Positions 1,849 through 61,241 of a stretch of 64,000 nucleotides of DNA are shown piece by piece. The notes beneath the pieces were generated by a model. The model had not been told where the DNA came from. It worked only from the letters and a program-made list of their open reading frames with translations, and did no database searches. This DNA is from a virus (taxonomy: Duplodnaviria; Caudoviricetes). A program made the position numbers and the translations under genes. Position 1 is the first letter of the stretch; the number at the start of each line of letters is the position of its first letter. Location: the IMG/VR virus record IMGVR_UViG_3300037467_002029, positions 18,212-82,211 of that record. The stretch is one strand, 5' to 3'.

Positions 1849-1865
1849 AAGTGACCGGGTCACTT
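1849..1865. promoter_or_regulatory. 17-bp palindromic element
   Basis: AAGTGACCGGGTCACTT, intergenic upstream of the gpL-like gene. Confidence 0.7.
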
Positions 1866-1871
1866 CATATG

Positions 1872-1901
1872 AAAAGGGCCGGAGCTTTCGCCCCGGCCCT
1901 T
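1872..1901 (-). terminator. Intrinsic terminator after tail tube gene
   Basis: Minus strand AAGGGCCGGGGC-GAAA-GCTCCGGCCCTT-TTC. Confidence 0.7.
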
Positions 1902-1941
1902 CCACTCACCGCAGAGAAGAGGCCCGTCTGCGGGAACTGGC

Positions 1942-2781
1942 TTAGGCGGCGTAGAGCCGGCCTGCGGCCTTGGTACCGATCTCGACGAGGCGCCCAGTGG
2001 CGGCTTCCGAGGCGGTGAGCAGGAGTCCACGCATTTCCCAGGGCATCGCGCCGTACTGGGTCTCGGTGAAGGACAGATTGAAACCCTTCGTGACCTGGAC
2101 CTTGGGCGCAACGTAGACGACCGGGCGGCCGAAGTTGGCGAGCGTACCGACGATCTTGACCGAGAACAGGTCGCCCTGGTCCGTCGAACCGGCCTCCATC
2201 TCGGTCACGACCCAGACGACCGCACCGGCCGGGAAGCTCATTCCGGCTGGGATCGGGAAACCCGCAATCGACACCGTGTGATCGCCGGCCGCAAAGGTGG
2301 AATCCGCCGCGGCGCGGCACGGAAAAACATAGCCGTCGATTGTGGGATGCTGAATAAGGAGCGTGTCACCCGCTTTGATGACCGCAGCAGCCGAGCCGAG
2401 CGTGCTGAGCGCTTCACCCGGGATCGGATAATCGTTGAGCGTCAGCGAAACCGCCGCTGCCGCCGCTGCCGTCTTCAGCTTGCCACGAAGCGGCTGACGA
2501 GCAGCCGTGCCAAAACCTTGCGCGCGAAGCAGGTTGTCAGCCGAATATTCCTGAACGGAACCGGTGATCTGCGACTGTACATTCGTCCTCTTGGTGTCGA
2601 CAAGCGCCTGGGCGATGCCGGCCGTCAGGTCGAGGTTCGAGCTGTCGACCACGACAGCGATTTCCTTCGCCAGGCCCACGGAGTGGTCGGCGGGGTTCAG
2701 GTCAAATACGGGGACGTCTCCGAACTTCGCCATCATCAGCGTGGCGCTCGAGAGCATGAAAGCGTTCTTCTTTGCCGACAT
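1942..2781 (-). CDS. Major tail tube protein
   Basis: 279 aa, between head-tail genes and tail tip genes, followed by a terminator; beta-rich C-terminus. Call is positional. Confidence 0.65.
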   Translation of the reverse strand: MSAKKNAFMLSSATLMMAKFGDVPVFDLNPADHSVGLAKEIAVVVDSSNLDLTAGIAQALVDTKRTNVQSQITGSVQEYSADNLLRAQGFGTAARQPLRGKLKTAAAAAAVSLTLNDYPIPGEALSTLGSAAAVIKAGDTLLIQHPTIDGYVFPCRAAADSTFAAGDHTVSIAGFPIPAGMSFPAGAVVWVVTEMEAGSTDQGDLFSVKIVGTLANFGRPVVYVAPKVQVTKGFNLSFTETQYGAMPWEMRGLLLTASEAATGRLVEIGTKAAGRLYAA

Positions 2782-3430: not shown

Positions 3431-3432
3431 GC

Positions 3433-8962: not shown

Positions 8963-9282
8963 TACAGGAGGTGCCCCGTCGCCCACTGGAGAAGCTTGTT
9001 CATTTCATCGGGGTCGTCGAGACCAAGATCTTCGGCAGCTTTGAGCTCGGACTCGTCTTTGATGAGCTTCTTCTCCGGCGTCATGCAACGCCGGAGAATG
9101 TAATCACGGGCGTACGGATCCGCGGCGATCGTATCCACGATGGCCCCTGGATCGGGGACCATGCGCTGCAGATCCTGGTGAAGACCGTAGCTCATCTTGA
9201 TCGTGTACTCGGACTCATCCTCGAGCTTGACCGTACAAGTCAGCGGAGGGCGCTCGAGACCGTTGGTTGTCGCAGCGGTCAT
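8857..9282 (-). CDS. Tail assembly chaperone (G-like)
   Basis: 141 aa upstream of the tape measure gene; contains the slippery heptamer. Confidence 0.7.
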   Translation of the reverse strand: MTAATTNGLERPPLTCTVKLEDESEYTIKMSYGLHQDLQRMVPDPGAIVDTIAADPYARDYILRRCMTPEKKLIKDESELKAAEDLGLDDPDEMNKLLQWATGHLLYFFGISAGGLKQLAELLASKLDQAQPAPSTSGSQS

Positions 9283-9494
9283 GCTTGCACCGCCGGATCT
9301 TCCTGGACGATCTTGTCCAGGAGTAGCGCACGAAGAGCGCTGTCGAGCGAGATGTGCTTGTCCATCCCGAGGCGAAGGAGCCGATTGGCCAGCTGGTTGA
9401 GAGGGATACCCTCGGCTTGCGCCTTCTCAGCAAGCTCGAGGTAGAATGGGATTTCGACGCGAAGCGTAAAACTCCTGTGGGTTCGGTTGGACAC
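9279..9494 (-). CDS. Ribbon-helix-helix (Arc/HicB-like) DNA-binding protein
   Basis: GTG 9494 after AAGGAG. RSFTLRVEIPFYLELAEKAQAEGIPLNQLANRLL shows an alternating beta strand, a helix, G-x-S/P-x-N and a second helix. Confidence 0.7.
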   Translation of the reverse strand: MSNRTHRSFTLRVEIPFYLELAEKAQAEGIPLNQLANRLLRLGMDKHISLDSALRALLLDKIVQEDPAVQA

Positions 9495-9563: not shown

Positions 9564-10460
9564 TTACCGCGTGCGCCCCGCGCCGTGGACTTCCTGCCAC
9601 TTCCAGCGGTTGCCCTGAAAGCCCTGCTCGATGCGCTTGAACACGGCGTTCGGCATCGCTCGTGTCAGGAAATATCCGATGAACGGCTGGATTGTCGGCC
9701 GAAATGGCACTGTCTGCGGATTGCCGCCAAGGCGCCACGCGGCGCGCTCGCCGAGCATCGCCAGAAGCCCTGAGCCCCGCGGGTTCGAACCGAAATCACC
9801 AAGTCCTCCCCCGCCGAGCGCCGGCAGCATTCCTGGGGTGATCCGAGTCATGGCTTGCACGCGGATTGTCGCGATCGCGATCTTCGTGTCCGTATTGCGA
9901 CTGTAATTCGTCGCGACCAATTTGGTGCTTCCGAGATCTTTTCGGTTCAGCGAAGTGTGCCTGTTGACCGAAACAGTGATGCCGCCGAAGGCGCCGGTCC
10001 ACGCCTTTGGCGAGCGGAGTCCGCCAAGCACGGCGCCCGTCCGCTGGAACCATGCGTCACCTGCCCACTTGCGGGCTTGCATGTAGGATGGCTCGCGCCG
10101 CGGCCAGTCGCCGGTGAGTGATCGGACAAAGGTACCATTGAGTCCCGGCATGCCTTTCATCGCGTCGGACTCCGGCGCAACAGTGGACAGCGTCCCCGTT
10201 GGGCCTCGATTTCGGCCGGCGATGCCGATGACGTGCGTCATGAAGAGCTGGGCCATGTGATCGAGCTCACGCTCGATATCTGCCTGCATCCGTTCCTGGA
10301 CCGTGCGCTTCAGCAGGTCGAACATTTTGTCGCCGTAAGAGACAGCGAAATCTTCAACGATCACCCGGGCGAAATTTTCGAAGCCGCGCGGCCTCAACTC
10401 CGAAGTGGTGGAGCCACCCTTCAGATGGTTGAACCTGAACCGTATCCTAAAGCTGGACAT
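9564..10460 (-). CDS. Neck/tail-completion virion morphogenesis protein (putative)
   Basis: 298 aa, basic; C-terminal RPTIQPF resembles HK97 gp10-like endings. Partly positional. Confidence 0.45.
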   Translation of the reverse strand: MSSFRIRFRFNHLKGGSTTSELRPRGFENFARVIVEDFAVSYGDKMFDLLKRTVQERMQADIERELDHMAQLFMTHVIGIAGRNRGPTGTLSTVAPESDAMKGMPGLNGTFVRSLTGDWPRREPSYMQARKWAGDAWFQRTGAVLGGLRSPKAWTGAFGGITVSVNRHTSLNRKDLGSTKLVATNYSRNTDTKIAIATIRVQAMTRITPGMLPALGGGGLGDFGSNPRGSGLLAMLGERAAWRLGGNPQTVPFRPTIQPFIGYFLTRAMPNAVFKRIEQGFQGNRWKWQEVHGAGRTR

Positions 10461-10488
10461 GGGGACTCTGCTCTCTCACGCCGGCTGC

Positions 10489-10926
10489 ATGGCGAAGCTC
10501 TACAGCACGGTCTACAAATCCGTCGTCCGCGCGGTGAACGACCTGGTCAAGGACATTCAGTCCACCGTTGATCCCCAGGCGCTCTACTGGGCCTGGGAGA
10601 ACCGAGACGACGAGGACAAGCTGCCTCGCGTGATGCTGGTCGGCGCCAACGGGTTCTCGTTCGACGAGAACCTCGGCCAGTGGCTGATCCGCTTCGGCGT
10701 CACGCTATCGACGGTCGACGACGCCAACCTGTTTCAGGAAGCCGATATCATCGACATGATCCACGACCGGTTCGGAGAGAAGCAGAAGATTTCACTCCGC
10801 GATCCTGACGACGGGAGCATCACGAACGAGCTCGTGTCAGTTCACTGGGAGGTGCTGCCGATGGTGCAGACCCAGGTCAGAAATTACCGCTCAATTGGCG
10901 TCGAGCTGCGGCGCACCGGAACCTAA
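10489..10926 (+). CDS. Putative tail terminator-like structural protein, inverted relative to its module
   Basis: Phage-like codon usage and a beta-rich protein (KLPRVMLVG...WLIRFGVTLST). ATG at 10489, alternative 10459. Confidence 0.5.
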   Translation: MAKLYSTVYKSVVRAVNDLVKDIQSTVDPQALYWAWENRDDEDKLPRVMLVGANGFSFDENLGQWLIRFGVTLSTVDDANLFQEADIIDMIHDRFGEKQKISLRDPDDGSITNELVSVHWEVLPMVQTQVRNYRSIGVELRRTGT

Positions 10927-12294: not shown

Positions 12295-12328
12295 AAAAGC
12301 CCCGAGGTTCGTGTGAACCCCGGGGCTT
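12295..12328 (-). terminator. Intrinsic terminator after major capsid gene
   Basis: Minus strand AAGCCCCGGGGTTC-ACAC-GAACCTCGGGGCTT-TT. Confidence 0.8.
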
Positions 12329-12330
12329 CC

Positions 12331-12347
12331 TAGTGACTAAGTCAGTT
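12331..12347. promoter_or_regulatory. 17-bp palindromic element
   Basis: TAGTGACTAAGTCAGTT, between the capsid stop and its terminator. Confidence 0.75.
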
Positions 12348-12354
12348 CAACCGA

Positions 12355-13563
12355 TCAGGGATCGGCAGTGACTGCGTCGAGGTTCAGAATGTCGCGCGTG
12401 TCGGCGAAGACCAAACGGTAACCCGCATTCTTCGTCTTGACGTAGCGAACCTTCTGGTTCTCGATCGAGCGGACCGACTCTTCGATGTCCGAGCCGTTCT
12501 CGTTCAGCTCTTCGACCGTTTCGCCCTTGATGAAGCCAACGAGCTTCGACGCAGGGGCGGACGAGGACACCTCGAAGTTGACCTTCTGGTTGAACCGCGG
12601 GTTCTCGATCGCGACTTGGACGCCCGCCTTCGCGAGCACGTCAGTCATGGTCATGCCCTGGTACTGCGGCGTCGCAAACATGCGCTCCCACTCGAAGAAC
12701 ATGTCCCAGTTACCGAGGACCGTGTCGACCGGCACGCCCGCCTGAGCGCGGGTGATCAACCACTTGAGGAAGATCTCCCAGTTCATGCGGCCGGCGGCGA
12801 TTGCGCCATTCCCGATGATCGACGCAGCGAGAGTGGAAGCGTTCGTCACGCTTGCCGCACCGTTGACGCCGTCGCCGTTGATCAGGAGATCGGTGACGAT
12901 ACCGACCTGTCCGATCTGCACCTCACGCTCGATGCGGTTTGCATACGGCGTGACGATGTCGAGGCTGATGCGACGCTCGAATTCGTAGGTGAACTCGTAG
13001 CCACCGCCGAACTTGTGGAACGTCACCGACTTGCTGTCGGTCTTCAGCGAACGGATCGGAATGCGCGCGCCTTCCGCGATCACGCCCGTCTGCTGATAGT
13101 CCTCGGCCTTGTCGTCGACAACGCGAGTGATCAGTTCGACACCGTTGGTGCCGCGGCTGTTCGCCAGCATGCCGCTCACGCTCTCAATCGAGCTCTGGCG
13201 ATACTTCCACTGGACGACGTCATCGACGACTTCCGGGAAGAACGCGCGGGTACCCGGCTTGAACTGGAAGGTCTCGGCCGCGGCTTGCAGCACGATGCCC
13301 TGATCGAGGTCGTCGCGGAACGGAAGGCCAAGGTGCGCGAGCGCCACCTCATAGCCGTTCAGACCCGAGCCCTTAAAGGCACCGACGTTCGGGTCGATCG
13401 CGAGACGACAATAGTCCCGCATCGACAGCCCCGCGTTCTTCGCAGTCGCGACCAGCTTCTGACCAGCGTTGAGGGACTCAGACGGGTTGTCGCTCAGAAG
13501 CCCGGCGAGCACCTGATCGGCCGGCCTGCGGTTCCGTGCGATTTCAAGGAGAAGAGGGTTCAT
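12355..13563 (-). CDS. Major capsid protein
   Basis: 402 aa after the protease and decoration genes; IAEGARIP...KFGGGYEFTYE HK97-fold-like pattern; strong terminator downstream. Confidence 0.85.
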   Translation of the reverse strand: MNPLLLEIARNRRPADQVLAGLLSDNPSESLNAGQKLVATAKNAGLSMRDYCRLAIDPNVGAFKGSGLNGYEVALAHLGLPFRDDLDQGIVLQAAAETFQFKPGTRAFFPEVVDDVVQWKYRQSSIESVSGMLANSRGTNGVELITRVVDDKAEDYQQTGVIAEGARIPIRSLKTDSKSVTFHKFGGGYEFTYEFERRISLDIVTPYANRIEREVQIGQVGIVTDLLINGDGVNGAASVTNASTLAASIIGNGAIAAGRMNWEIFLKWLITRAQAGVPVDTVLGNWDMFFEWERMFATPQYQGMTMTDVLAKAGVQVAIENPRFNQKVNFEVSSSAPASKLVGFIKGETVEELNENGSDIEESVRSIENQKVRYVKTKNAGYRLVFADTRDILNLDAVTADP

Positions 13564-15348: not shown

Positions 15349-16077
15349 GTGCAAGCCGTAAGTAACCTTCGTCACGCAGCCGGCCGAACCGTCCGCAATC
15401 TCAGGCGCAACCGCGTTGGCGGTGTCGGTCATGATTTTGCTGGCGACATTCGATTGCGGCTTCCCCACCTCGATATTCGCACCGTCTTTGACATCGGCGC
15501 CCACATCGGACTGACCGCAATCGAGTTCTCGGACGAGTTCCCGCAAGCCACGGTACACGCTTTCGAGCCGCACCCCGGAAACTTCTCCCGGATGCAATCG
15601 AACTGCGCCGGCAAGCCAGAGGTAAGGTTCTACAATCTCGGGATCGGCGCAGAACCTGGCACACTCCCGTTTCATTTCGACCCCGAGCACCCGACAATGG
15701 CCCGCGTCGTCAGCAACGGAGAAGAGGTCACGGATACCGTGGCGATCGATACCGTTGACCGCCTCTGCGACCAGCTTGGAATAACCCGCATCGACTTCAT
15801 GAAGATCGACGTCGAGGGTCATGAAATTCCGGTTCTGGAGGGAGCGATCAGGATGCTCAGCGAAGGCAGGATTTCGCTTCTCAAGCTCGAAACCGCCATT
15901 GACCCGGATCTCTCTTATCACACCCAATTGTGGGACTTGTGCGAACTCCTTCAGCCGCTCGGCTACCGTTTGTTCGGCTTCTACGACCAGTGGGAGAACA
16001 CGCTTTCAACTGAAAGCGCGAAACTGAGGCGGTTCGACGTGGCCTTCATCTCGCCGGGGATCATTCACAGAACCTAA
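15349..16077 (+). CDS. FkbM family SAM-dependent methyltransferase
   Basis: VFDIGAHIG, HAFEP and DFMKIDVEGHE..VLEGA motifs. Exact start uncertain. Confidence 0.88.
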   Translation: MQAVSNLRHAAGRTVRNLRRNRVGGVGHDFAGDIRLRLPHLDIRTVFDIGAHIGLTAIEFSDEFPQATVHAFEPHPGNFSRMQSNCAGKPEVRFYNLGIGAEPGTLPFHFDPEHPTMARVVSNGEEVTDTVAIDTVDRLCDQLGITRIDFMKIDVEGHEIPVLEGAIRMLSEGRISLLKLETAIDPDLSYHTQLWDLCELLQPLGYRLFGFYDQWENTLSTESAKLRRFDVAFISPGIIHRT

Positions 16078-27164: not shown

Positions 27165-27181
27165 AAGTGACTGAGTCACAT
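27165..27181. promoter_or_regulatory. 17-bp palindromic element
   Basis: AAGTGACTGAGTCACAT, in the divergent terL/27230 gap. Confidence 0.75.
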
Positions 27182-31581: not shown

Positions 31582-32079
31582 ATGCCTCGCGCCCACGTTC
31601 AAGGCTATGACAGCAACGCCGCGCAATTCGAGCGCATGGGCAATCCGTGGGTTTCCGAACGCGAGCGCGCGGAGTTTTCGGCCCCGAACAAGAAGGAGGC
31701 GCGCCAGAACCGCAATCCGCGACGCGGTGTGGATTTGGGAAATTTCCCAAAACCGGCGTTCGAGCGGTCCACTGATCCGCGCAAGCGGCGCCGCGATTTC
31801 ATTGCCCTCGCGTTGTCCCGGGTGGGTGGATCGCGAACCATTGTCCCGACGATCGCGAAGCCCGACGACGCCGTGGTCCGCGCGCCGGGGTTGACCGAGC
31901 TCAAGCCGCTCACATCGGAGCAGCTGGCCTTGCGCCAAGCCCAGCGCGACGCCGTTGCGGCGCGGCTGGAGGCGGGCGCGCTCGCCTACGCTGCGAGCGA
32001 GGCCGCGAAGGCGGCCGAGCGCAAGCGTCTGGAAGCCATTGTGAAGGCCGCACAGAACCGACTCGCTGCTTTGGGCTGA
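31582..32079 (+). CDS. Hypothetical early protein
   Basis: CAGGAGA RBS, ATG 31582; 165 aa. Confidence 0.65.
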   Translation: MPRAHVQGYDSNAAQFERMGNPWVSERERAEFSAPNKKEARQNRNPRRGVDLGNFPKPAFERSTDPRKRRRDFIALALSRVGGSRTIVPTIAKPDDAVVRAPGLTELKPLTSEQLALRQAQRDAVAARLEAGALAYAASEAAKAAERKRLEAIVKAAQNRLAALG

Positions 32080-32228
32080 AACTTGAAGTGACTAGGTCAC
32101 TTGTGCGGGTTGGCGAGGGCCAGTTGCTTCTTTGGGCTGGAAATTGAAGTGACTAGGTCACTTGTGCGGGTTGGCGAGGGCCAGTTGCTTCTTTGGGCTG
32201 GAAATTGAAGTGACTAGGTCACTTGTGT
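32069..32228. repeat. 61-bp tandem repeat (~2.6 copies), each copy with AAGTGACTAGGTCACTT
   Basis: Units start at 32069, 32130 and 32191; palindromes at 32086-32102, 32147-32163 and 32208-32224. Confidence 0.95.
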
Positions 32229-32340
32229 GGGGTGCCAACTGTTGGTGTATTTTGCCAGCTTTGGGTGGCGACAGTAGACCATGTAACCCCAAGGTTACAG
32301 CGAAAGTATTCGTATAACCCCCTTATTTACTTCATCCGGC

Positions 32341-32372
32341 TTCTATAAATATATAAAAAATAATTATATATA
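32341..32372. other. AT-rich tract (candidate unwinding element)
   Basis: TTCTATAAATATATAAAAAATAATTATATATA in a GC-rich genome, between direct and inverted repeat units. Confidence 0.6.
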
Positions 32373-32378: not shown

Positions 32379-32395
32379 TAGTGACTAAGTCACTT
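32379..32395. promoter_or_regulatory. 17-bp palindromic element
   Basis: TAGTGACTAAGTCACTT. Confidence 0.8.
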
Positions 32396-32403: not shown

Positions 32404-32466
32404 ACGCCAAAGGAGCAACTGGCCTTTTGGTTGGCCCCCGCAAGTGACTTAGTCACTTCAAGTTTC
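32404..32466 (-). repeat. Inverted copy of the 61-bp unit, with AAGTGACTTAGTCACTT at 32442-32458
   Basis: Reverse complement reads AAACTTGAAGTGACTAAGTCACTTGCGGGGGCCAACCAAAAGGCCAGTTGCTCCTTTGGC, matching the unit. Confidence 0.85.
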
Positions 32467-32484: not shown

Positions 32485-32516
32485 GCCCTCGCCGAACCCC
32501 TCGGCGAGGGCTTTTT
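32485..32516 (+). terminator. Intrinsic terminator-like hairpin
   Basis: GCCCTCGCCGA-ACCCC-TCGGCGAGGGC-TTTTT. Confidence 0.75.
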
Positions 32517-32843: not shown

Positions 32844-32998
32844 CCGCCGCCGAATGCCTCGACATGGCTCTCAACGAGGAGCGCCTTGCCCGCGACTGCG
32901 GTGTCCACGACCCCGCCTTCGCCTTCCTGATCCGCGAGCGCGATTGGTGGCTCAACGAGGCCGCGCGCCTCGAGGAGATCGAAAACCAAGTGACCTAG
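32840..32998 (+). CDS. Hypothetical protein
   Basis: ATG 32840 overlapping the previous stop. Confidence 0.5.
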   Translation: MTAAECLDMALNEERLARDCGVHDPAFAFLIRERDWWLNEAARLEEIENQVT

Positions 32999-33004
32999 TC
33001 ACTT
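32988..33004. promoter_or_regulatory. 17-bp palindromic element
   Basis: AAGTGACCTAGTCACTT; contains the TAG stop of the upstream ORF. Confidence 0.8.
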
Positions 33005-36998: not shown

Positions 36999-37220
36999 AT
37001 GACCAGCGAGAACGAGATCTTTGATTTTCTCAAAGACGCAAGAAGCCACGTCGACCAGGCCTGTACCTACGCCGCCGAAGTGGTTCGCCGGCTGGAGCAG
37101 GAACCGAACTGTGTGACAGCTCGGAGCGCGCTCCAGTGGTACACTGAAGAGCTTCAGCGCCAGAGCAACAACCTCGAGAGCCTTCGCTCCGATCTTCTAA
37201 TTCTGGCCCGCAAGATCTGA
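36999..37220 (+). CDS. Hypothetical coiled-coil protein
   Basis: AAGGAG RBS; its stop lies in the palindromic element. Confidence 0.6.
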   Translation: MTSENEIFDFLKDARSHVDQACTYAAEVVRRLEQEPNCVTARSALQWYTEELQRQSNNLESLRSDLLILARKI

Positions 37221-37231
37221 CCTAGTCACAT
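37215..37231. promoter_or_regulatory. 17-bp palindromic element
   Basis: ATCTGACCTAGTCACAT; bridges TGA stop 37220 and ATG 37230. Confidence 0.75.
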
Positions 37232-40900: not shown

Positions 40901-41535
40901 TTCCTGCAGTGCTGCCTCTTCGGGGAGCTGGTCTATGGCTAACCTCTACGCGCCTGACGGTACCCGCATCATCGGCACCTGCGAAACACTCAAAGGCACC
41001 TGTCTCTTCCACAACGAAGACATCACCATCGACACCGAGACTGGTGAGTTTCAATTCCAGTATGTCGGCGGAACCGAGGTGGATTGGAACGGCCAGGTGA
41101 CCAGTCGCGACCAGTTCGGGATGCGGCTGTTCTTCGACGAGAATTACGGGATCTGGCCCGAGAGCGCACTGTGCCTGAAGTAATCGTCGACATGAAGTGG
41201 GAGACGGCCGTGCCGCTCCTGCTCGAGATCATCCAGAACGGCACACCTGCCGGCCGGCGCGACGCTCGCGACGAGCTGCTGCGCTGTGCCCGTATCGCGG
41301 ACACCGCGGTGGTTGCCGCTAAAGCCGCTTCACCCGAACCCACGGCTGACTAGCCATGCAAATCGATATGGCACACCCACAGCCTCGTGGCTTCCTCGCC
41401 TGGATCGCCAACCCCAACGCTCGGGGCGTAGTCCTCGATCGTGAGTTTGACGACGACGAGAACCAGAAGCCTCTGACCGCCGAGCCGCTGGACTGGCACG
41501 AAAGCCGCCACTGGCCGGCTCTCGCTACCGACTGA
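37920..41535 (+). other. Array of ~12 small, coupled, mostly acidic early ORFs
   Basis: ORFs 37920-38123, 38116-38388, 38549-38911, 38892-39197, 39187-39900, 39893-40123, 40116-40562, 40559-40942, 40935-41183, 41171-41353 and 41356-41535, with overlapping starts and stops. Confidence 0.7.
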
Positions 41536-41546
41536 CTTAGTCACTT
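41530..41546. promoter_or_regulatory. 17-bp palindromic element
   Basis: GACTGACTTAGTCACTT, upstream of rIIA; contains the upstream TGA stop. Confidence 0.8.
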
Positions 41547-44997: not shown

Positions 44998-45791
44998 AAC
45001 AGATCCTCCACGTCGCCCAATGCACGATCGCCGCCAATCGCAAGAATGGCACGAACGAGCCGGCGATCATCGTCCGTAACTATCGGGGCGCCAAGCGCGC
45101 CCATGAGGTCGAGCTTGTCCACGACGGAAAGGTCGTGGGCAAGTTCGTCTACCGCCCACACGCCCCGTTGCCGTGCGGCGCACGCCTTTGGTTCGAGTCA
45201 AATTCGGAAGAATTGGAGCTCCGGACCTCCCAACATGAAGAAATCTTTGAGTTCAGAAAGGTGGCCTGATGGGCGCCGAAACTTTCAGCCAAGTTGCGAG
45301 CGGCAAGACCGCTCAAGAAGCCTTCCGTACCGCCCAGGAACAAGCCCGGTATGACTATGGTCATGCCGGCTACACCGGCACGATCGCCGAAAAACATGAT
45401 TTCATCATGCTCAAGGTTTCGCCCGATAAGATCGAGGAGCTTAAAAGCAGCCCGTACTGCTACTACGACTACTCTGGAGACGACCCGCTCTGGGAAAAGG
45501 TCGATGACAAGTGGGGACCGGCCGGCTGCATCGATCTTGGTGATGGACGGTATCTTTTCTTCGGTTGGGCATCGAGCTGATGTCCCTCAAAGTCTCCCGC
45601 GACTTCGACACCGACGAGATCGTGCTTCGCATCAAGCGCGGCGGGGAAGCAGGTGGCTTTGCCCGCTTCCTGACCGCGTCAGCTGACGCGATCGAGCACG
45701 GCAAGATCACCGGTAACCCCAAAGGTAACCCCGTCAAGGTCGCGGACTCGCTCCGTTCGATCGCTGACAAAATGCACAGGCACAACGACGC

Positions 45792-48695: not shown

Positions 48696-49082
48696 ATGTG
48701 GAGACGGATTTGGGGCGAACCAGTGCCCGACGCGCAGGAGCGTCAGGTCAATGCCTCGCTTGCGAGACACTTGATCACTGGTGGGCTGTTCCTGGAGCAA
48801 TTGCTTGGCAACTACGCCTGCGGCCTCGTAGCGCTCGAAACCTTCTTCGGCACACCCGACGGCGAAGTGACCGCCGACTATGTATCGCACCGGCTCGGTG
48901 GGCTCATCAGCGAAGACACTGCCCGTCGCCGACTCAACGACATGGGCAAGCGAAATATAGTCACAATACGAAAGGCCGGTCGGGGCATTTATTTCAAGCT
49001 CAGACCAGAGCTGGCCGAGGCGGCGATTTCCTTCATGAAAGGAGAACCGATTGTGCTCCCGGCGTCGGAGAGAGCCGCCTAA
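48696..49082 (+). CDS. Winged helix-turn-helix protein
   Basis: ADYVSHRLG..ISEDTARRRLNDM...IVTIRKAGRGIYFKL. Confidence 0.65.
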   Translation: MWRRIWGEPVPDAQERQVNASLARHLITGGLFLEQLLGNYACGLVALETFFGTPDGEVTADYVSHRLGGLISEDTARRRLNDMGKRNIVTIRKAGRGIYFKLRPELAEAAISFMKGEPIVLPASERAA

Positions 49083-49233: not shown

Positions 49234-49250
49234 AAGTGACTTAGTCACTT
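49234..49250. promoter_or_regulatory. 17-bp palindromic element
   Basis: AAGTGACTTAGTCACTT, intergenic. Confidence 0.8.
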
Positions 49251-49296: not shown

Positions 49297-49614
49297 ATGA
49301 AAGATCGCTCTGAACCACTTTCAAACTTGGCATTTTCAGCCTTCGCACATAATGAAGCGCCCCCTACGGGGGGCCTCAACATGACGAAGGATGAGATGCT
49401 GCTGAAATTGCTCGATGAGCTTTGCCGCTCGTGGATGGAAACATCGACGCCGGTTGAGATTGGTTCGGACCTCGAAAAGGTCCGGATGCTGAAGGAGGCT
49501 CGAGCTCAGATTACAGAGGGGAGACCCTCCGAATTGGTTCAACAGCTATACAGAGAGGTTTTCCTTCGAGATGTGTGGAGCGGGGACAGAAATCAGTCGG
49601 GGAGTACAGCGTAA
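49297..49614 (+). CDS. Hypothetical protein
   Basis: AGGAGG RBS, ATG 49297 (alternative 49381). Confidence 0.5.
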   Translation: MKDRSEPLSNLAFSAFAHNEAPPTGGLNMTKDEMLLKLLDELCRSWMETSTPVEIGSDLEKVRMLKEARAQITEGRPSELVQQLYREVFLRDVWSGDRNQSGSTA

Positions 49615-50089
49615 ACAGCTGTTGTCTGAACGCGATGAGCGTATCATCGAGTTCATGCGCCAGGGAAGGCCAGTTGCCGTTATTGCGGAACTGGAAGGGT
49701 TGGAGCCCGACTATTGTCGAAAAGCTACCCGCCGCCTCTCCGCTGATTACTGTATCGACTATAATCCTGACCGAGAACCGGTAACTTCGCTTTTGGGCGA
49801 GGCAAGCCGGCGCTTCCGCAACAACATCGCGAACGTCCTCTATCAGTTCCGCAACAAGCCCTGCCAGCACCCGCTGGCCGTCGCTCGCGACACTGGGCTT
49901 ACTCAGGCTCAACAGATCCTTGCGTCCGAACGTGGCGGACGCCACAACTTCAAGCTCACCGAGCTTGAGCGGCTTGCCGTGGCGACGGAGCAGGATTTCA
50001 CGAGGATGATGATTATTGCACTCTTGAAAGGCACGACGGAGGCGGACCAGCTCCGGCTCCAACGGGTGCTGGCATGTCTGAACAGCTAA
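49571..50089 (+). CDS. Putative double-HTH transcription regulator
   Basis: N-terminal LSERDERIIEFMRQG...IAELEGL is LuxR-like; C-terminal VARDTGLTQ...ERG..NFKLTELERLA is XRE-like. Confidence 0.5.
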   Translation: MCGAGTEISRGVQRKQLLSERDERIIEFMRQGRPVAVIAELEGLEPDYCRKATRRLSADYCIDYNPDREPVTSLLGEASRRFRNNIANVLYQFRNKPCQHPLAVARDTGLTQAQQILASERGGRHNFKLTELERLAVATEQDFTRMMIIALLKGTTEADQLRLQRVLACLNS

Positions 50090-50471
50090 CCCGCTTCTTT
50101 ACCGCCGCACAGCGCCTCCGCCGGTCCGAACGAGCACTCGTTCGGGCCGGTGCTGTTATGGAGCTCGAGGATCTGGCCGTCGAGGCTCAGAACCATAAGC
50201 TCAAGTCGAGGATCGCTGAATTGCTCAACGCTCAAAGGGCGAAGGCGTCATGAGTCTAGTTCATCAACTTGCCGCGAAAGCTTCGGTGCTCACCGGCTCC
50301 GAGGTGATCATCCACCGCACCGGACCCTTCGTTCATCCCCGTCGCTTCCGCATCCAGGTGAAGCGCGGTGAAGCCTCTTTCACCTTCGGTGAGGCCGATT
50401 TGATCGAGACCAAGGCGCGGCTAGCCATGATCTGTGATCTCGTCGAAATGGGGTTCGTGTCCACCACCAAC

Positions 50472-50488
50472 CACTGACTTAGTCACTT
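50472..50488. promoter_or_regulatory. 17-bp palindromic element
   Basis: CACTGACTTAGTCACTT, upstream of nrdJ, followed by a 12-bp hairpin (50489-50521). Confidence 0.8.
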
Positions 50489-50560
50489 GCCCCGGAGCCT
50501 TGGACGACGAGGCTTCGGGGCTCTTACTGCCTGCGGTTCACCTTTGTTGGAGAACCGTCC

Positions 50561-52216
50561 ATGCTCGACCCGGGCCACGCCCCTTTTCGCTCTCAATTCA
50601 GCCGCGATATCTTCAACCAGAAATACCGGCATGACGGTGCTGAGAGCTGGGACGAGCTCGCGAACACGCTCGTGCTCGACGTCTGCAAGGAGCACCTGTC
50701 GATTGGGGATATGACCCAATTGGCCGAATATATTTCGGAGATGAAGTTCATCCCCGGCGGGCGCTATCTCTACTATGCCGGTCGACCTAACCCCTTCTTC
50801 AACAACTGTTATTTGCTGCGCGCGGAAGAGGACACTCGAGAGGATTGGGCGAACCTGTCATGGAAATCGGAAAGTTGCTTGATGACCGGTGGGGGCATCG
50901 GGGCGGATTACTCGATCTACCGGCCGGCTGGTGCACGAATTGCTCGTACCGGCGGCGTGGCGTCGGGACCAATCCCGAAGATGGAAATGATCAACGAGAT
51001 CGGCCGGCGGGTGATGCAGGGTGGCTCCCGAAGGAGTGCGATCTATGCCTCCCTTAACTGGGCCCACGATGACGCCGCGAAATTCCTCGTGTCCAAGAAC
51101 TGGGACGAGATGGTCGTCGCCGGTACCGGCGGGCTCACGATCTGGGATCTGAAGCAGGCCGACTTCAACTATCCGGCGCCGCTCGACATGACCAACATCT
51201 CGCTCAATTACGATGACGAGTGGGGCTTCGACGCGACGCACCCGACATTCGTCAAGAATGTTGAACAGGCGCTCCGCACCGCAGAGCCGGGCTTTAGTTT
51301 CAACTTCGGTCCGCATCGGAACGAGACACTCCGTAACGCCTGCACCGAGGTGACGTCCGAGGATGACAGCGACGTCTGCAACCTTGGAAGCCTCAACCTG
51401 GGGCGGATCGAATCCATCTCTGAATTGCGCGACGTTATCCAGCTCGCCACCAAATTCCTGATCTGCGGCACGCTTCGCGCGAAGTTGCCGTACGACAAGG
51501 TGTATGACATCCGTCAGAAGAACCGGCGCCTCGGCCTCGGCCTGATGGGCGTGCATGAATGGTTGATCAAACGAGGATACCGTTATGAAGTCACCGACGA
51601 ACTTCACACCTGGCTTGGAGTCTACGCTGACGAGTCTGATGATGTGTCCGCGGATTTCTCCGACCGCCTTGGCATCTCTCGCCCGTGCGCTAACCGTGCC
51701 ATCGCCCCGACAGGCACTATCGGAATTATGGCCGGCACTACCACTGGGATCGAGCCTCTTTTCGCGGTTGCTTACCAGCGTCGATACCTGAAGAACGGCA
51801 CGGACTGGCACTACCAGTTCGTCGTCGACGGCACCGCCAAGGTGATGATCGAGGAGTATGGCGTTGACCCGGAGAACCTCGAGGGCGCTATCGATCTCGC
51901 TGCCGACTACGAGCGCCGCATCAAGTTCCAGGCGGATGTCCAGGACTATGTCGACATGGCGATCAGCTCGACCATCAACCTGCCCAAGTGGGGCAGCGAG
52001 CTGAACAATCCTGACACCGTGCCGGAGTTCGCAAAGACGCTGGCCAAGTACGCACCGCGGCTCAGGGGCTTCACCTGTTATCCAGACGGCGCGCGCGGCG
52101 GACAGCCCCTCACCCCGGTCTCCTACAAGGAGGCCAAGCTGCACGAGGGCCAGGTCTTCGCCGAGACGTTCACTGATATCTGCGATCTAACAGGCGGCGG
52201 GACATGTGGCAGCTGA
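50561..52216 (+). CDS. nrdJ: Class II (adenosylcobalamin-dependent) ribonucleotide reductase
   Basis: NCYLL, NACTE, CNLGSLNL, IAPTGTI and ISSTINLP motifs; terminal CxxxxxxC; no beta-subunit gene adjacent. Confidence 0.88.
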   Translation: MLDPGHAPFRSQFSRDIFNQKYRHDGAESWDELANTLVLDVCKEHLSIGDMTQLAEYISEMKFIPGGRYLYYAGRPNPFFNNCYLLRAEEDTREDWANLSWKSESCLMTGGGIGADYSIYRPAGARIARTGGVASGPIPKMEMINEIGRRVMQGGSRRSAIYASLNWAHDDAAKFLVSKNWDEMVVAGTGGLTIWDLKQADFNYPAPLDMTNISLNYDDEWGFDATHPTFVKNVEQALRTAEPGFSFNFGPHRNETLRNACTEVTSEDDSDVCNLGSLNLGRIESISELRDVIQLATKFLICGTLRAKLPYDKVYDIRQKNRRLGLGLMGVHEWLIKRGYRYEVTDELHTWLGVYADESDDVSADFSDRLGISRPCANRAIAPTGTIGIMAGTTTGIEPLFAVAYQRRYLKNGTDWHYQFVVDGTAKVMIEEYGVDPENLEGAIDLAADYERRIKFQADVQDYVDMAISSTINLPKWGSELNNPDTVPEFAKTLAKYAPRLRGFTCYPDGARGGQPLTPVSYKEAKLHEGQVFAETFTDICDLTGGGTCGS

Positions 52217-52227
52217 CTTAGTCACTT
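52211..52227. promoter_or_regulatory. 17-bp palindromic element
   Basis: AGCTGACTTAGTCACTT; contains the nrdJ stop. Confidence 0.8.
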
Positions 52228-52247
52228 GCCCCAGCACTTGAGACGAG

Positions 52248-52285
52248 GGAGTCCGTCAGCGTTAGTTGGCGGGCTCCTTTCGTTT
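52248..52285 (+). terminator. Intrinsic terminator after nrdJ
   Basis: GGAGTCCGTCAGC-GTTA-GTTGGCGGGCTCC-TTTCGTTT. Confidence 0.75.
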
Positions 52286-56442: not shown

Positions 56443-56443
56443 C

Positions 56444-56460
56444 ATCTGACTCAGTCACTT
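56444..56460. promoter_or_regulatory. 17-bp palindromic element
   Basis: ATCTGACTCAGTCACTT, just after the helicase stop. Confidence 0.75.
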
Positions 56461-56534
56461 CTCTGTAACCCTTAGAAAATTTCGCTTCGTGGTCTCAAAG
56501 AGATCACTCCACAACTTTGAAAGGTACTTCGATT

Positions 56535-57230
56535 ATGGGTAATCCCGCTTCTGCTCTCGACAGCGTCATGGCCGAAGCTGAAGCAGCCGCTGCTGCGGTT
56601 GTTTCGGTTCCTGTGCCCCTCCCGGGCAACGCCACGGACCTCGTTCCGGCCACTCCTGCCAACACCAATCTTGCCCGTCCGACGATCGAGGACTTCCTCG
56701 ACGGCGGTGGAATGGACGTCGACACCTATCTCAAGGTGAACGCGGAAGGTTTCCGCATCGGTGACAAGATGCAGGGCCTGCTCGAGGAGGTGATTGCCGA
56801 GATCGATATGTCGGAGGTCACTCCGATCTATCAGTCGCGGCATGAGGCTGGTGGCAAGACCACCTTCCTCAAGACCTACGACGGCTCGACCACGCCGGAA
56901 GGCAAATCGTTCGACTCCGAGTTCCAGCGCCTGTCGCGGATCAACGTGAAGAACGACGGCCCCTTCCAGACGGCCGAAATCCCGCTGACGCTTATCGACG
57001 ATGTCGAAGATCCGAAGAAGTCCTCTTCGGTGAAGATCGACGCGGGCACTCGCGTCGGCCTGACGCCGTCGAAGACTGGCTTCCGCGCCTTCCAGGCGTT
57101 CGGCAAGTCACTTCGCCGCACCAATCCGGACGCTCTGAACGGTGTGCTGAAGGTCAAGCTGACCCACGAGAAGAAGACCAACACGGCCGGCAATGAGTGG
57201 GGCGTGCTCAACTTCGAGCTGGTCGACTGA
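56535..57230 (+). CDS. Hypothetical replication protein (possible ssDNA-binding/annealing)
   Basis: 231 aa between helicase and exonuclease; C-terminal NEWGVLNFE. Function is inference. Confidence 0.4.
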   Translation: MGNPASALDSVMAEAEAAAAAVVSVPVPLPGNATDLVPATPANTNLARPTIEDFLDGGGMDVDTYLKVNAEGFRIGDKMQGLLEEVIAEIDMSEVTPIYQSRHEAGGKTTFLKTYDGSTTPEGKSFDSEFQRLSRINVKNDGPFQTAEIPLTLIDDVEDPKKSSSVKIDAGTRVGLTPSKTGFRAFQAFGKSLRRTNPDALNGVLKVKLTHEKKTNTAGNEWGVLNFELVD

Positions 57231-57577
57231 TGCAGACGGCGGTCGTATCTCCCCTCCCCTCGACGGCCGCCTCTGAGAGGCGGGGGCCACCTGGCCCCCG
57301 CCTCATTTCCTTTGCCGAGCGGTGGTTCGATATCCCGTCAGGGTCGATCTCAAACCCAAAGCGCAAGGGCGGCAATATCTCCCGGGCTCGCTTCGCCGTC
57401 GCCCACGTCCTCAATAGCGAGTGCGGCTACAGCTACCCGCGCATCGCTGACCTTTTCAATCTGCAGGACCACGGCGGCGTTCTCCGTGGGGCCCGCAAAG
57501 CCGAACAGCTGCTTCGCAGCGACGAGATTTTCTTCAACGGCGTCAAGCTGTTGAAAGCGGAGATTGCACCGCAGTGA
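57230..57577 (+). CDS. DnaA domain IV (C-terminal HTH)-like protein
   Basis: RARFAVAHVL...SYPRIADLFNLQDHGGVLRGARKAEQL aligns with the DnaA signature ARQIAMYL...SLPEIG..F..RDHTTVLHA.RKI. Confidence 0.75.
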   Translation: MQTAVVSPLPSTAASERRGPPGPRLISFAERWFDIPSGSISNPKRKGGNISRARFAVAHVLNSECGYSYPRIADLFNLQDHGGVLRGARKAEQLLRSDEIFFNGVKLLKAEIAPQ

Positions 57578-58383: not shown

Positions 58384-58607
58384 AAAATTACCACGAAATT
58401 ATCGACAAAGCCGTCCGTGAAGCCGCCGCAAGCGGTATGACTGTTGGGGACATAGTTCACCCGCTCGCGAACATGACTGCGACAATCCTCGCCAACGCCG
58501 TGGTCACGAACAAGCTCGACGCCGCTGAAGAGATCGAAGCCATTCTTACCATGACGGAGGAGCTCTATGAGCAGTACCTCGATGCATATCTCAAGCAGAC
58601 TGCTTGA
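58380..58607 (+). CDS. Hypothetical protein with CTG start
   Basis: AGGAGG 8 nt upstream of CTG; 75 open codons (MKNYHEIIDKAVREAAASG...YLKQTA). Confidence 0.5.
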   Translation: MKNYHEIIDKAVREAAASGMTVGDIVHPLANMTATILANAVVTNKLDAAEEIEAILTMTEELYEQYLDAYLKQTA

Positions 58608-61221
58608 CGCCCGTTCACCGGACGAACTGTTTCAACGAGCCGTTGAAGAGCTGTCCAACGCCTCAATTCTGGGACTGGACTGCGAGACCACCGACGAGGA
58701 GACAGCTCACCCCGGCATCCAGTCCTACCGCAATAAGAAGCGGTGGGTCTTCGATCATCGTCGCACGACGATGACCGGCTTCTCATTCTACGCCGATGGG
58801 AGCGATACCGCTTGGTACGTCAACCTGGCGCACGCCGACATCGAGAACCGGATGCCGCGACGCAAGGCGGATGTGCTGCTCGCCGCGATCCCTGAGAACT
58901 GCCTGATCCTCGCCCACAACGCGCCGTTCGAACTGGTCATGTTCGAGCAGTGCCTGGGGGTTATTTTACGAAATATTTTGTGCACCCTGCAGCTCGCGGT
59001 CACCCATCACGGGCCCGACGAGTATGACGCGCAGTTGTTCTTCGCCCAGCCACTCCAGCATCTGATCAAGCACCGCAAGGCGATCGAGCAGGCGTTCGCG
59101 AACTACGACCCCGAGACCCGCGGCCGGAGCCTCACGAGCGAGCAGCAGGAGCTGCTGTCGCTGTTCATCGGCAAGACCTCGACGGCGGCTCATTCGTACA
59201 ACGGTTTCGTTAGCGAGATCGCGTTCGGCTATAATTTGAAGAAGCTCGTCAAGAGCCTCTTCGGCTTCCAGATGACGACGTACGACGAAGTGCTGAAAGC
59301 TCACGGCGCCAAGCACATGGGCGAGCTCACCGGTGAGCAGGTGGCCAACTACGGCGCGGACGACGCCTACTGGGCCGTGCGCGTGTTCCACCATCTGAAG
59401 GATGATCTGCTTCGTACCAATCCGAAGGTGCTGCAGACGTTCCTGAGCCAGGAAAACCCGATGGTCCGGGTGTTCGCTGACAACTGGCGCGATGGGCTCC
59501 GGCTCAACCTTCAGGAGGTATTCGACCGGCGCGACATGGAGCGCGCGGCGATGGCCGACCTGCTCCGTCAGTTCAAGGCGCAGATCAGCGCCTACCTGCC
59601 GTTCCCGGAGGAACCCAGCGAGAAGCTGCTCGAGCGCCAGGGCAAGTGGTATAAGGATGGCAGCTGGCAGAAATATCGCAAGCGCATCACCGATTGGTGC
59701 GCGCTGCCCGACAGCGCCGACACGTTCGAGCAGGTTACGCAATGCTCGAACCCGATTGGCAATGCCTGGCGTGAAGAAAAGGGCCTGCCCGAAGTCAAGA
59801 ACCTGCTGAACCCGGTCTACTACATGGGCATGCGGATCATTCTGCACGACCTGATGGGCCTGCCCCTCGTCTACCTCGACGGCGAGATCTCGTCGGACAA
59901 GGAAGCGCGCGGCAAGATGCTGCTCAAGGCCGAGAAGGCCGGCGACGAGCAGGCGATGGAAGTGCTGAAGACCTACCAGCGGATTGCCGACGTCGAGCAG
60001 ACTGTAAAGCTATACTTGACACCCTACAGTCAGCTCATGGACCCCGAGACCAGCCGGGTGTACCCGTCGCTAAGCTCAATGCTGGCGACACGCCGCATGG
60101 CCTTCTCGTTCCCCAACGTCATGGCGCTCGCCAAATATTCGGACAGCAAATATGTCAGAGGCTTCTACCTTGCGGACAACGATGATCACGTCGTGGTGTC
60201 CGCAGACTGGTCGTCCGTTGAGCTCGTCATCATTGGTGACCTGTCAGGCGATCACGGATTTCGAGAGGTGTTCGGTCAGATACCGTATGGCGATCTCCAC
60301 ACCGGCGCCGCCGCGGATTGTCTCGCCGTCAAAACACTCCCCGGGCTGACCGAGGAGGAATACAGCCGTTTCAAGTTCGACGAGAACCCCAACGGCCGGC
60401 GGTTGCTGCACATCTTCACCGGCCAGGAGATGACCCCGAAGGACTTCTACAAGCTGACCCGCGGCACGCCGGTCGGCAAGGGCGCGAACTTCAACTATTG
60501 GTACTCGGGCTCGCTCTCGACAGTCGGCATGAATCTCGGATGGGCGCCTGACGAAATGTGGGAAGCGGTCGATCGCTATCGCAATCGCTTCCCGCTCGCC
60601 GAGGCCTGGCGAGTGAAAACTCAGCAGGAGCTGATGGAGTACGGCTTCATCGAGCTGCCGGATCATCATCGCCGCGTGCGCCTCGAGGCGACGCCGAGCT
60701 GGCACACCTGCATGATGCGGAAGTTCGCGGACATCTCCGCCTCGCCAGCGATGCTGGCTTACGCCGAGCTCGCGTTGAAGCGCATCAAGAGCCGTGCGCT
60801 CAATCAGGGTGTCAACGGGAAGGTGCAAGGCACCTGTGCCACGCTGGCCAAACGTTCAATCCTCCGCATGAAGGCGGAAATTGAACGGCGCGGCTGGGAC
60901 TCTCGCTTCATGTTCCCGGTGCACGACGAGACGGTCTGGTCGGTTCACCGTGATCTGGTGCCGGAGTTCATCACGACTCTGCGTTCGGTGAAGACCAATC
61001 ACCCCGACATCGTCACCAGTTTACCGCTGCACTGTACAGTCAGCGTAGGACGGACGTTCAAGCCATTTGATAAACTGAACCCGGCCTTCAGCCAGATCGA
61101 GCTCGACGAAGCTGAGCCGATCGACGGCGTCATCCCGCGCGAGCTGCAGGGCCAGGTTCTCCCCGACGACATCGTCAAACGGGTGATCGAGTTCGTCGCC
61201 GACGCTAAGGTGGCGGCATGA
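58567..61221 (+). CDS. polA: Family A DNA polymerase with 3'-5' exonuclease
   Basis: Exo motifs LDCET, AHNAPFE and YGADDA; pol motifs ADWSSVE, R....KGANF..WY and PVHDE. Confidence 0.92.
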   Translation: MSSTSMHISSRLLDARSPDELFQRAVEELSNASILGLDCETTDEETAHPGIQSYRNKKRWVFDHRRTTMTGFSFYADGSDTAWYVNLAHADIENRMPRRKADVLLAAIPENCLILAHNAPFELVMFEQCLGVILRNILCTLQLAVTHHGPDEYDAQLFFAQPLQHLIKHRKAIEQAFANYDPETRGRSLTSEQQELLSLFIGKTSTAAHSYNGFVSEIAFGYNLKKLVKSLFGFQMTTYDEVLKAHGAKHMGELTGEQVANYGADDAYWAVRVFHHLKDDLLRTNPKVLQTFLSQENPMVRVFADNWRDGLRLNLQEVFDRRDMERAAMADLLRQFKAQISAYLPFPEEPSEKLLERQGKWYKDGSWQKYRKRITDWCALPDSADTFEQVTQCSNPIGNAWREEKGLPEVKNLLNPVYYMGMRIILHDLMGLPLVYLDGEISSDKEARGKMLLKAEKAGDEQAMEVLKTYQRIADVEQTVKLYLTPYSQLMDPETSRVYPSLSSMLATRRMAFSFPNVMALAKYSDSKYVRGFYLADNDDHVVVSADWSSVELVIIGDLSGDHGFREVFGQIPYGDLHTGAAADCLAVKTLPGLTEEEYSRFKFDENPNGRRLLHIFTGQEMTPKDFYKLTRGTPVGKGANFNYWYSGSLSTVGMNLGWAPDEMWEAVDRYRNRFPLAEAWRVKTQQELMEYGFIELPDHHRRVRLEATPSWHTCMMRKFADISASPAMLAYAELALKRIKSRALNQGVNGKVQGTCATLAKRSILRMKAEIERRGWDSRFMFPVHDETVWSVHRDLVPEFITTLRSVKTNHPDIVTSLPLHCTVSVGRTFKPFDKLNPAFSQIELDEAEPIDGVIPRELQGQVLPDDIVKRVIEFVADAKVAA

Positions 61222-61224
61222 CGC

Positions 61225-61241
61225 GAGTGACCTAGTCACTC
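61225..61241. promoter_or_regulatory. 17-bp palindromic element
   Basis: GAGTGACCTAGTCACTC, just after the polA stop. Confidence 0.75.

Follow-up and report, generated by a model that had tools for sequence, protein, structure and literature searches.

Dispersed palindromic operator arrays have already been described in several phages. In P1, with its C1 operators, and in phiC31, with its 17-bp conserved intergenic inverted repeats, one repressor acts at well over a dozen scattered sites; the P1 operators are asymmetric, and the proteins and sequences of both phages are unrelated to those of the phage treated here. The subject of the present analysis is a 17-bp palindrome, AAGTGAC-YNR-GTCACTT, which is repeated throughout the virus record IMGVR_UViG_3300037467_002029 (Duplodnaviria; Caudoviricetes) of IMG/VR. 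The stretch of DNA analysed, hereafter the window, is 64,000 nucleotides long and corresponds to bases 18212–82211 of a circularly assembled 82,211-bp phage genome (G000) with 61% G+C; site coordinates follow the window numbering unless marked "genome". Judged from sequence, the palindrome is very probably the site of a phage-encoded protein, and it probably serves transcriptional control; that a symmetric protein of the phage controls transcription from these sites at operon boundaries is the explanation that we favour, with a little less assurance than either of its parts.

In form, the closest described system appears to be the repeat of the Cluster O mycobacteriophages, a 17-bp dyad (TGTTCGG-N3-CCGAACA) present in 34 copies, several of them in open reading frames (ORFs), for which binder and function are unassigned (Cresawn et al. 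2015, PMC4351075). The two repeats have in common 7-bp arms, a 3-bp spacer, tens of copies through a siphovirus genome, a mostly intergenic or gene-end location and a central triplet without consistent orientation. They differ in sequence, host phylum and phage lineage, and none of the 19 copies here lies within an ORF, that is to say, the likeness is one of form only. In proposed function, the nearest comparison seems to be the operator/stoperator network of the L5 type. The stoperators of cluster A phages (L5 gp71, TipsytheTRex repressor) are asymmetric 13-mers bound by a two-domain monomer in one orientation to transcription (PMC9283540). As in that system, the sites here belong to a phage that is probably temperate, number more than 15, lie in promoter regions and short gaps, overlap stop codons and occur in early and late regions, and the role proposed is also the silencing of the whole prophage (PMC9283540). 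However, the site here is a symmetric palindrome whose weak polarity is not kept in relatives, the candidate binder is a predicted symmetric homodimer, and the proteins are unrelated. The palindrome is therefore dispersed like the sites of the L5 stoperator class and lacks their asymmetry and their fixed orientation; the strict L5 analogy drawn in an earlier first-pass annotation of this DNA does not hold for a palindrome of the dimer type.

In the window, 18 matches to the core TGAC-N3-GTCA were counted, where 1.24 ± 1.17 are expected, and none of 100 dinucleotide shuffles gave as many. When up to three mismatches to AAGTGAC-N3-GTCACTT are allowed, 19 matches are found in the window against 2.0 ± 1.5 in shuffles. 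All 16 copies listed by the first-pass annotation match this consensus at their coordinates with zero to three mismatches, and beyond the window there are three further good copies, at genome 526, 2398 and 8071, which brings the whole genome to 19. According to simple gene calls made in the analysis, by which 92% of the genome is coding and 7.8% non-coding, every one of the 19 good copies is intergenic or on a stop codon, which agrees with what had been stated for the 16. Two extra core matches, at 40858 and 45671, are intragenic, lack the flanking consensus and stand at chance level. Thus the scan of genome and relatives against shuffled sequence that had been suggested gave an excess over chance, conserved orthologous junctions (see below) and, for the core, only these two matches inside genes. 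The copies are found in the early, replication and late regions, as had been noted, and in the integrase region as well; 14 of the 19 are single and sit exactly at gene boundaries, and the other five form an array at 32 kb. In the plus-strand half, nearly every real gap of at least 59 nt has a copy. The sites of the window outside the array, with the hairpins next to them, are as follows (G001–G003 are relatives described below); the stop codons reported inside five of the copies are all present.

1849..1865: palindrome, perfect (AAGTGAC-CGG-GTCACTT), flanked by late genes of the minus strand; it follows a terminator, with 61 nt to the next start codon.
1872..1901, minus strand: terminator-like hairpin with T-run, just upstream (in transcription order) of the 1849 copy.
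12331..12347: palindrome, 7 nt past the stop of the major capsid gene (12355–13563, minus strand; capsid homologs).
12296..12329, minus strand: strong terminator hairpin, −27.8 kcal/mol, directly after the 12331 copy in the minus direction.
27165..27181: palindrome, single, in the divergent gap between the large terminase gene (minus, start 27100) and the replication operon (plus, start 27230); kept in G001–G003.
32988..33004: palindrome, perfect; its central TAG is the stop of 32840–32998; upstream of the 33131–34094 trio; junction occupied in G001–G003.
37215..37231: palindrome; its TGA is the stop of 36999–37220.
41530..41546: palindrome; its TGA is the stop of 41356–41535; 48 nt before rIIA (41595).
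49234..49250: palindrome, perfect, 46 nt before 49297–49614, the first gene of the candidate-binder operon; junction occupied in G001–G003.
50472..50488: palindrome; its TGA is the stop of 50250–50477; hairpin 50489–50521 follows; 72 nt before the ribonucleotide reductase gene.
52211..52227: palindrome; its TGA is the stop of the ribonucleotide reductase gene; hairpin 52242–52284 follows.
56444..56460: palindrome, 1 nt past the helicase stop; junction occupied in G001–G003.
61225..61241: palindrome, 3 nt past the DNA polymerase stop; junction occupied in G001–G003.

The symmetry of the site was analysed with 57 oriented and aligned copies from four genomes, 52 of them unique. The consensus is symmetric through its centre, the Y at M8 being mirrored by the R at M10. 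At every arm pair the Watson-Crick counts equal the expectation for independent arms, and among the unique sites the M3/M15 pairs are G-C in 32, C/C in 15, G/G in 5 and C-G in none. In the relative G003, GTGAC is combined with GTAAC in 6 of 13 unique sites, which puts a G.A mismatch in the middle of the stem. The lack of covariation between the arms, together with these mismatches, argues for a double-stranded DNA site of a protein and not for a hairpin. Conservation is somewhat lower in the left arm than in the right one, since at many sites the final codon and stop of the preceding gene extend into it. At most G000 sites the central triplet, read in the direction of transcription, is YTA, with a flip near 32.4 kb; this orientation signal, which would resemble an origin flip of replichore type, is not kept at the orthologous sites of G001–G003 and is given no weight for that reason.

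An RNA or cruciform hairpin acting in termination, processing or mRNA stabilisation at gene ends would suit an inverted repeat with 7-bp arms, a loop of 3 nt and frequent overlap with stop codons, and at the junction before the integrase operon a longer stem with one compensatory change between G000 and G001 is indeed formed. Yet no compensatory arm change occurs among the 52 unique sites, the G003 copies carry the mid-stem mismatch already mentioned, one site lies in a divergent promoter gap, and a U-tract is absent after most copies, which leaves this explanation with very little probability. As for the longer stem itself (genome 515–555), the palindrome there tops a G+C-rich stem (GGGGGT...GCCCCC) that is kept in G001, G002 and the fragment G011, and the operator may at this one place lie inside a terminator hairpin. 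The stem-loops said to follow six or more copies are only partly borne out: strong terminator-like hairpins come after 12331 (in the minus-strand reading), 32442, 50472 and 52211; a further one precedes the 1849 copy in the direction of transcription, and the remaining hairpins are weak or overlap the next ribosome-binding site. With a strong hairpin at only about 5 of 19 sites, the comparison with the PeSL promoter/stem-loop cassettes of T4-type phages is not borne out.

Relatives were collected as a graded IMG/VR series found with the capsid protein, and the identities below are those of the capsid protein against G000.

G001: capsid 90%; 18 core matches.
G002: capsid 81%; 10 core matches.
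G011 (fragment): about 7 copies, with the motif unchanged.
G003: capsid 70%; about 15 sites, with right arm GTAACT and left arm GTTAC or GTGAC.
G004: capsid 60%; TACC-N-GGTA 4 times against 0.03 expected, TAC-N3-GTA 11 times against 1.4.
G005, G006, G007 and G008: capsid 50%, 48%, 52% and 51%; no motif.
G009 and G010: capsid 64% and 62%; both fragments, of 23% and 44% completeness; no site of GTNAC-N3-GTNAC form.

Hence the motif drifts stepwise with phage divergence, from GTGAC (G000–G002 and G011) through GTTAC/GTAAC (G003) to TAC-CNG-GTA (G004). Ten orthologous junctions have a site in three or four genomes: the divergent terminase/replication gap, the junctions before the 33131 gene, rIIA, the candidate-binder operon and the reductase, those after the reductase, the helicase and the polymerase, and those before the integrase operon and the thymidylate-synthase operon. 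At these junctions the identity to G000 is 0.95 in the motif and 0.67 in the ungapped flanks for G001, 0.85 and 0.43 for G002, and 0.74 and 0.33 for G003.

Two other origins of such a pattern were considered together and are both very improbable. If the sites belonged to a borrowed host transcription factor, the motif would be expected in host genomes; it is enriched in none of 401 sampled alphaproteobacterial genomes, where the 15-mer core occurs at most once per genome, below the reversed-pattern control, and it changes stepwise with phage divergence, so a host-regulon site was rejected. If instead the sites were boundaries of recombinational gene shuffling (mosaic joints), alignment ends should gather at them. 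Within 40 nt of a site lie 5 of the 82 G000–G001 alignment ends against 1.8 expected, and in G002 a reductase of 25% identity stands in for the one between two sites; but the enrichment is weak (the random maximum is 8), and the same would be seen with any regulatory site that is conserved. The reductase gene (50561–52216), which lies between two palindromes, is 96% identical in G001, and its difference in G002 looks like a cassette swap between conserved sites. Selection on the site, its stepwise drift along with the phage and the lack of a host regulon all suggest that the binder is encoded by the phage. The proposal of the first-pass annotation that one phage protein binds all sites, including the cluster at 32 kb, is in this way supported indirectly, through symmetry, the absence of covariation, the conservation of junctions, the drift and the lack of host enrichment.

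The genes around the sites are arranged in two blocks. The late genes (terminase, portal, capsid and a 1514-aa tape measure) run leftwards on the minus strand from 27100, while the plus strand from 27230 carries primase-helicase, rIIA, rIIB, ligase, ribonucleotide reductase, helicase and DNA polymerase; beyond the window lie genes for an SbcC-like nuclease, thymidylate synthase and endolysin. For the large terminase, identity to its counterparts in Caulobacter phage Seuss and Achromobacter phage JWF is about 40%, protein matches relate the phage to Sphingomonas proviruses as well, and megablast of 5 kb against GenBank phages gave no match. The sequencing runs listed as containing the phage are DNA metagenomes of soil and rhizosphere, with no RNA run among them. 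Two genes run against the late operon: an FkbM-type methyltransferase (15349–16077, plus), which is present in this genome alone, and a 165-aa protein of unassigned function (10429–10926, plus), which is kept in G001–G003. By position, both are placed like morons, i.e., genes expressed in the lysogen.

The first-pass annotation had seen no integrase and had taken the phage for an apparently lytic one, because the window is cut in such a way that genome 995–2215 falls outside it. This plus-strand gene encodes a 406-aa protein with hundreds of homologs, several of which are named integrase or have an integrase SAM-like domain, and several of which lie in Sphingomonas chromosomes. R235, K270, R322, H349 and Y359, the catalytic R-K-R-H-Y, are invariant across 29 homologs; the profile of the protein matches the catalytic domain of P2 integrase (E 0.009), and the AlphaFold model (pLDDT 85.8) is aligned over its full length with lambda Int by Foldseek (E 4e-6), followed by the Tn1549, Xer, Brujita, HP1 and P2 integrases. 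The Pfam Phage_integrase profile gives no score on it. By its residues and its predicted fold, the protein is a divergent tyrosine integrase of the lambda-Int fold that this Pfam profile misses. The relative G003 has a Pfam Phage_integrase ORF at the matching place; G002 is listed as a provirus, its proteins are found on a 2.55-Mb Sphingomonas jaspsi contig, and its record terminates right at the integrase homolog. After the 995–2215 gene there is a non-coding gap of 182 nt, which is likely attP because the G002 provirus record terminates there. Integrase fold and residues, the G003 integrase and the chromosomal location of G002 together mean that, on sequence and model grounds, the clade is temperate at least in part and that this phage has a gene for integration; it is probably an 82-kb temperate siphovirus of Sphingomonas type. 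The site network is then most likely an ordinary kind of prophage control and not a novelty of a lytic phage.

On this basis the following explanation is proposed. AAGTGAC-YNR-GTCACTT would be the operator, in double-stranded DNA, of one phage-encoded regulator with two-fold symmetry. About 14 single sites in almost every true gap between gene blocks (before the integrase operon, between terminase and replication genes, before rIIA, around the reductase, after helicase, polymerase and capsid, and before the regulator operon) would allow transcription to be controlled genome-wide. The likeliest mode would be repression, through occlusion of promoters and through a roadblock that works in either orientation, so that some 120 genes are kept silent in the lysogen, with the regulator's own operon autoregulated; the five-site array, which resembles a lytic origin, may couple replication to the same protein. 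For the direction of control the confidence is lower than for the control itself, a repressor rather than an activator being given slightly less than an even chance.

Several placements bear on this direction. The divergent gap requires promoters and has no need of a terminator, yet one central site is kept there in four genomes, which speaks for a role at promoters and not only at terminators. A roadblock or insulator accounts better than a promoter element for the conserved copy at genome 2398, at the convergent junction behind the integrase gene, and for the sites that stand before terminators. On the other hand, at most sites, including those far from the upstream stop, the motif ends 45–76 nt upstream of the next start codon. 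This spacing would also be expected of activator or promoter elements, in which a phage dimer about 40 bp upstream of starts recruits host RNA polymerase to promoters without normal −35 boxes, in the manner of class II CRP/FNR sites, Mu Mor/C or T4 MotA boxes. Activation would likewise account for the single site that serves both sides of the divergent terminase/replication gap and for the scarcity of E. coli-type sigma-70 promoters, of which 3 were found in 37 kb (window 26500–63900) against about 6.7 in shuffled sequence, i.e., no excess. A box G[AC]AA[AT][TC] located 15–20 nt past the palindrome at the post-helicase junction (56461–56480) in G000–G003 also suits an activator, and it could be a −10-like element for the post-helicase promoter only. 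Nevertheless, no fixed −10-like box downstream is common to the sites (at most 0.5 bit of information beyond the motif), transcripts started at several sites would meet the strong terminators just downstream, and one conserved site, the copy at genome 2398, lies at a convergent junction. Neither profile searches with Sigma70_r2 and r4_2 nor the large ORFs revealed a sigma factor or a phage RNA polymerase. Finally, since the phage is probably temperate, a dispersed repressor network is the simpler reading, and the activator reading is considered unlikely. Two related ideas were also rejected: a promoter role of the motif for a sigma factor or RNA polymerase of the phage, in view of the negative searches just given, and an ECF-like −35/−10 arrangement (right arm GTAACTT/GTCACTT with a downstream CGxC), for want of a fixed downstream box across sites.

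The five remaining copies lie in an array at 32.07–32.46 kb, at the end of the primase-helicase operon, in which 2.7 direct 61-bp units are followed by an A/T tract, a further copy and an inverted unit:

32065..32231, plus strand: tandem 61-bp units, 2.7 copies, with perfect palindromes at 32086, 32147 and 32208.
32341..32372: nearly pure A/T tract of 32 bp, between the direct units and the inverted unit.
32379..32395: palindrome adjoining the A/T tract.
32442..32458: palindrome in an inverted copy of the 61-bp unit.
32485..32511, plus strand: strong intrinsic terminator, 11-bp stem then TTTTT, separating the array from the first small gene of the plus strand (32533).

The array has the build of an iteron-type origin, namely tandem direct repeats, an A/T-rich tract and replication genes alongside; it looks like a lytic origin, and the A/T tract looks like its DNA-unwinding element. 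At ori-lambda, dyad-symmetric iterons adjoin an A/T-rich tract. The array here resembles it in having direct repeats with a dyad-symmetric site, the 32-bp A/T tract and neighbouring replication genes, and differs from it in the period, 61 bp against about 20 bp, and in the presence of the same site at 14 gene boundaries elsewhere. Accordingly, the palindromes might be replication-initiator iterons in the first place, the array being the origin and the dispersed copies titrating or handcuffing the initiator or organising the chromosome, with no direct role in transcription. The three direct units (2.7 copies), the A/T tract and the inverted unit at the end of the primase-helicase operon would agree with this, and so would the fact that in G001–G003 the arrays adjoin the same module of small genes (homologs of 33131 and 33675) although its order differs. 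But 14 of the 19 copies are single, stand at gene boundaries and are kept at orthologous junctions, as transcription control predicts and titration does not require, and the recognition helix of the 33675–34094 protein differs between G001 and G002 though they share the motif; a purely replicative role is thus quite improbable. A broader version, in which one small phage dimer uses the palindrome both as an origin iteron and as an orientation-independent operator or roadblock at nearly every operon boundary, is held to be unlikely. To our knowledge, neither P1 nor phiC31 reuses its operator as a tandem array beside an A/T tract.

Some further elements were observed around the array. The terminator at 32485–32511 leaves only 21 nt to the start of the small gene at 32533, an arrangement also found in G001; this gene may be transcribed by way of antitermination or attenuation. 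A second local palindrome, GGAAATTTCC, occurs at 30783, 31489 and 31738, around the two genes between primase-helicase and array, and recurs at matching places in G001 and G002. The word TGGTGTATTTTGCC (32240–32270) recurs in the array region of G003 and may be a further conserved origin element. In G002, AAATTTCC and TGGGAAA are the most enriched intergenic words, and six intergenic DnaA-box-like words TAATCCACA are present there (record positions 40587, 53395, 56207, 57408, 64081 and 67192), with none in G000, G001 and G003.

As regards the protein that binds, the first-pass annotation had named five candidates. One of them, its "double-HTH" (double helix-turn-helix) protein at 49571, is the one that the evidence favours:

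49571..50089, plus strand: candidate binder, 172 aa, two-domain helix-turn-helix protein with a predicted XRE/Cro-type C-terminal fold, also predicted to form a homodimer.

By tblastn, this 172-aa protein, the RHH protein, the WYL-like protein and a few unassigned proteins persist as far as G004, and it is the sole HTH-type candidate still present there. It has two helical domains (AF2 model, pLDDT 86.7), and the top Foldseek matches of the C-terminal domain are C.BclI, C.AhdI, C.Esp1396I, ClgR, HipB, 434 Cro and lambda cI; these XRE-type matches have a probability of about 1.0 but weak E-values of 0.04–0.4. The homodimer model scores 0.81 against 0.00 for the best control, with at least 97% contact agreement between runs and a partner pLDDT of at least 88; in the calibration, 20 of 30 proteins solved as pairs came up to this score mark, against 1 of 23 solved as single chains. 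The prediction thus supports pairing of the protein as a homodimer. Its putative recognition helix begins with GLTQAQQ in G000, G001 and G002, the three genomes with the shared motif, but with GLIQAAQ in G003 and GLTNVEQ in G004. In addition, a conserved site stands 46 nt upstream of its operon in four genomes, as is expected for autoregulation.

The structural matches call to mind the controller proteins of restriction-modification (R-M) systems (C.Esp1396I, C.AhdI, C.BclI), homodimeric proteins of XRE-type HTH whose C-boxes read TG..GACT-TAT-AGTC..CA (PMC3351150). The half-sites are similar, the palindrome here reading GTGACT-N-AGTCAC, and C proteins are the best structural matches of the candidate. 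However, the spacer between GACT and AGTC is 1 bp here against 3 bp (TAT) in the C-boxes, and the sites here are dispersed; C proteins have about 80 aa, one domain and one or two R-M promoters, in contrast to the 172 aa and extra N-terminal domain of the candidate. No R-M genes were seen beside 49571–50089, and the one methyltransferase seen, at 15349–16077, is distant and of FkbM type. In both spacing and context the palindrome falls outside the C-box class, and the resemblance may serve as a lead only.

The HTH protein at 33675–34094, also named by the first-pass annotation, always adjoins the site array; it was set aside as the weaker candidate since its recognition helix differs between G001 and G002 despite the shared motif and it is absent from G004. 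Other small candidates are the RHH protein (9279–9494), a DnaA-domain-IV-like protein of 115 aa (57230–57577; match to PDB 1j1v, E 6e-4), the WYL-like protein (37442–37744) and a conserved 91-aa protein (44994–45269), for all of which Pfam, PHROG and NCBIfam yielded little; the products of 33131–33472 and 48696–49082 count among the alternatives too. A ParB/KorB-type binder was rejected, as a six-frame search of the genome for ParB_N, up to E 1, returned no match.

A number of observations weigh against control by a repressor of this kind, and against this candidate in particular. Both G000 and G001 come from soil metagenomes in which they assembled as free circles, and for this reason lysogeny of this phage is inferred from its integrase and its relatives. 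The promoters to be repressed are not located, since E. coli-type sigma-70 promoters show no excess in the 37 kb scanned, and the distance of the motif from the start codons suits an activator site centred near −40 equally well. The strong terminator that separates the 32442 site from the first early gene is explained by neither the repressor nor the activator model. As for the candidate, the helix of G011 reads GLTQAAQ yet its GTGAC motif is unchanged, which makes for a loose correlation of helix and motif. In the predicted dimer, the interface involves residues 108–114, which adjoin the recognition helix, so that the modelled dimer may differ from the form that would bind DNA. Moreover, the gene is co-directional with lytic genes and not placed like a classical cI, and Pfam HTH_3 found no match in the whole genome. 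The protein of 49571–50089, on its sequence and model, is put forward as a tentative candidate with rather less than an even chance of binding the palindrome.

In summary, the analysis gives a regulatory map for uncultured temperate siphoviruses of about 80 kb from Sphingomonas-type soil bacteria, phages whose set of replication and nucleotide-metabolism genes is unusually large for temperate phages. The map consists of a defined site, a short list of binders and natural variants of specificity, and bears on how immunity specificities evolve. If the palindrome does serve one small dimer as origin iteron and operator alike, a single protein concentration would govern both the firing of replication and transcription across the genome when the phage chooses between the prophage state and lytic growth, and protein and site would co-evolve fast enough for new immunity groups to arise, from GTGAC to GTTAC and then to TAC-CNG-GTA.

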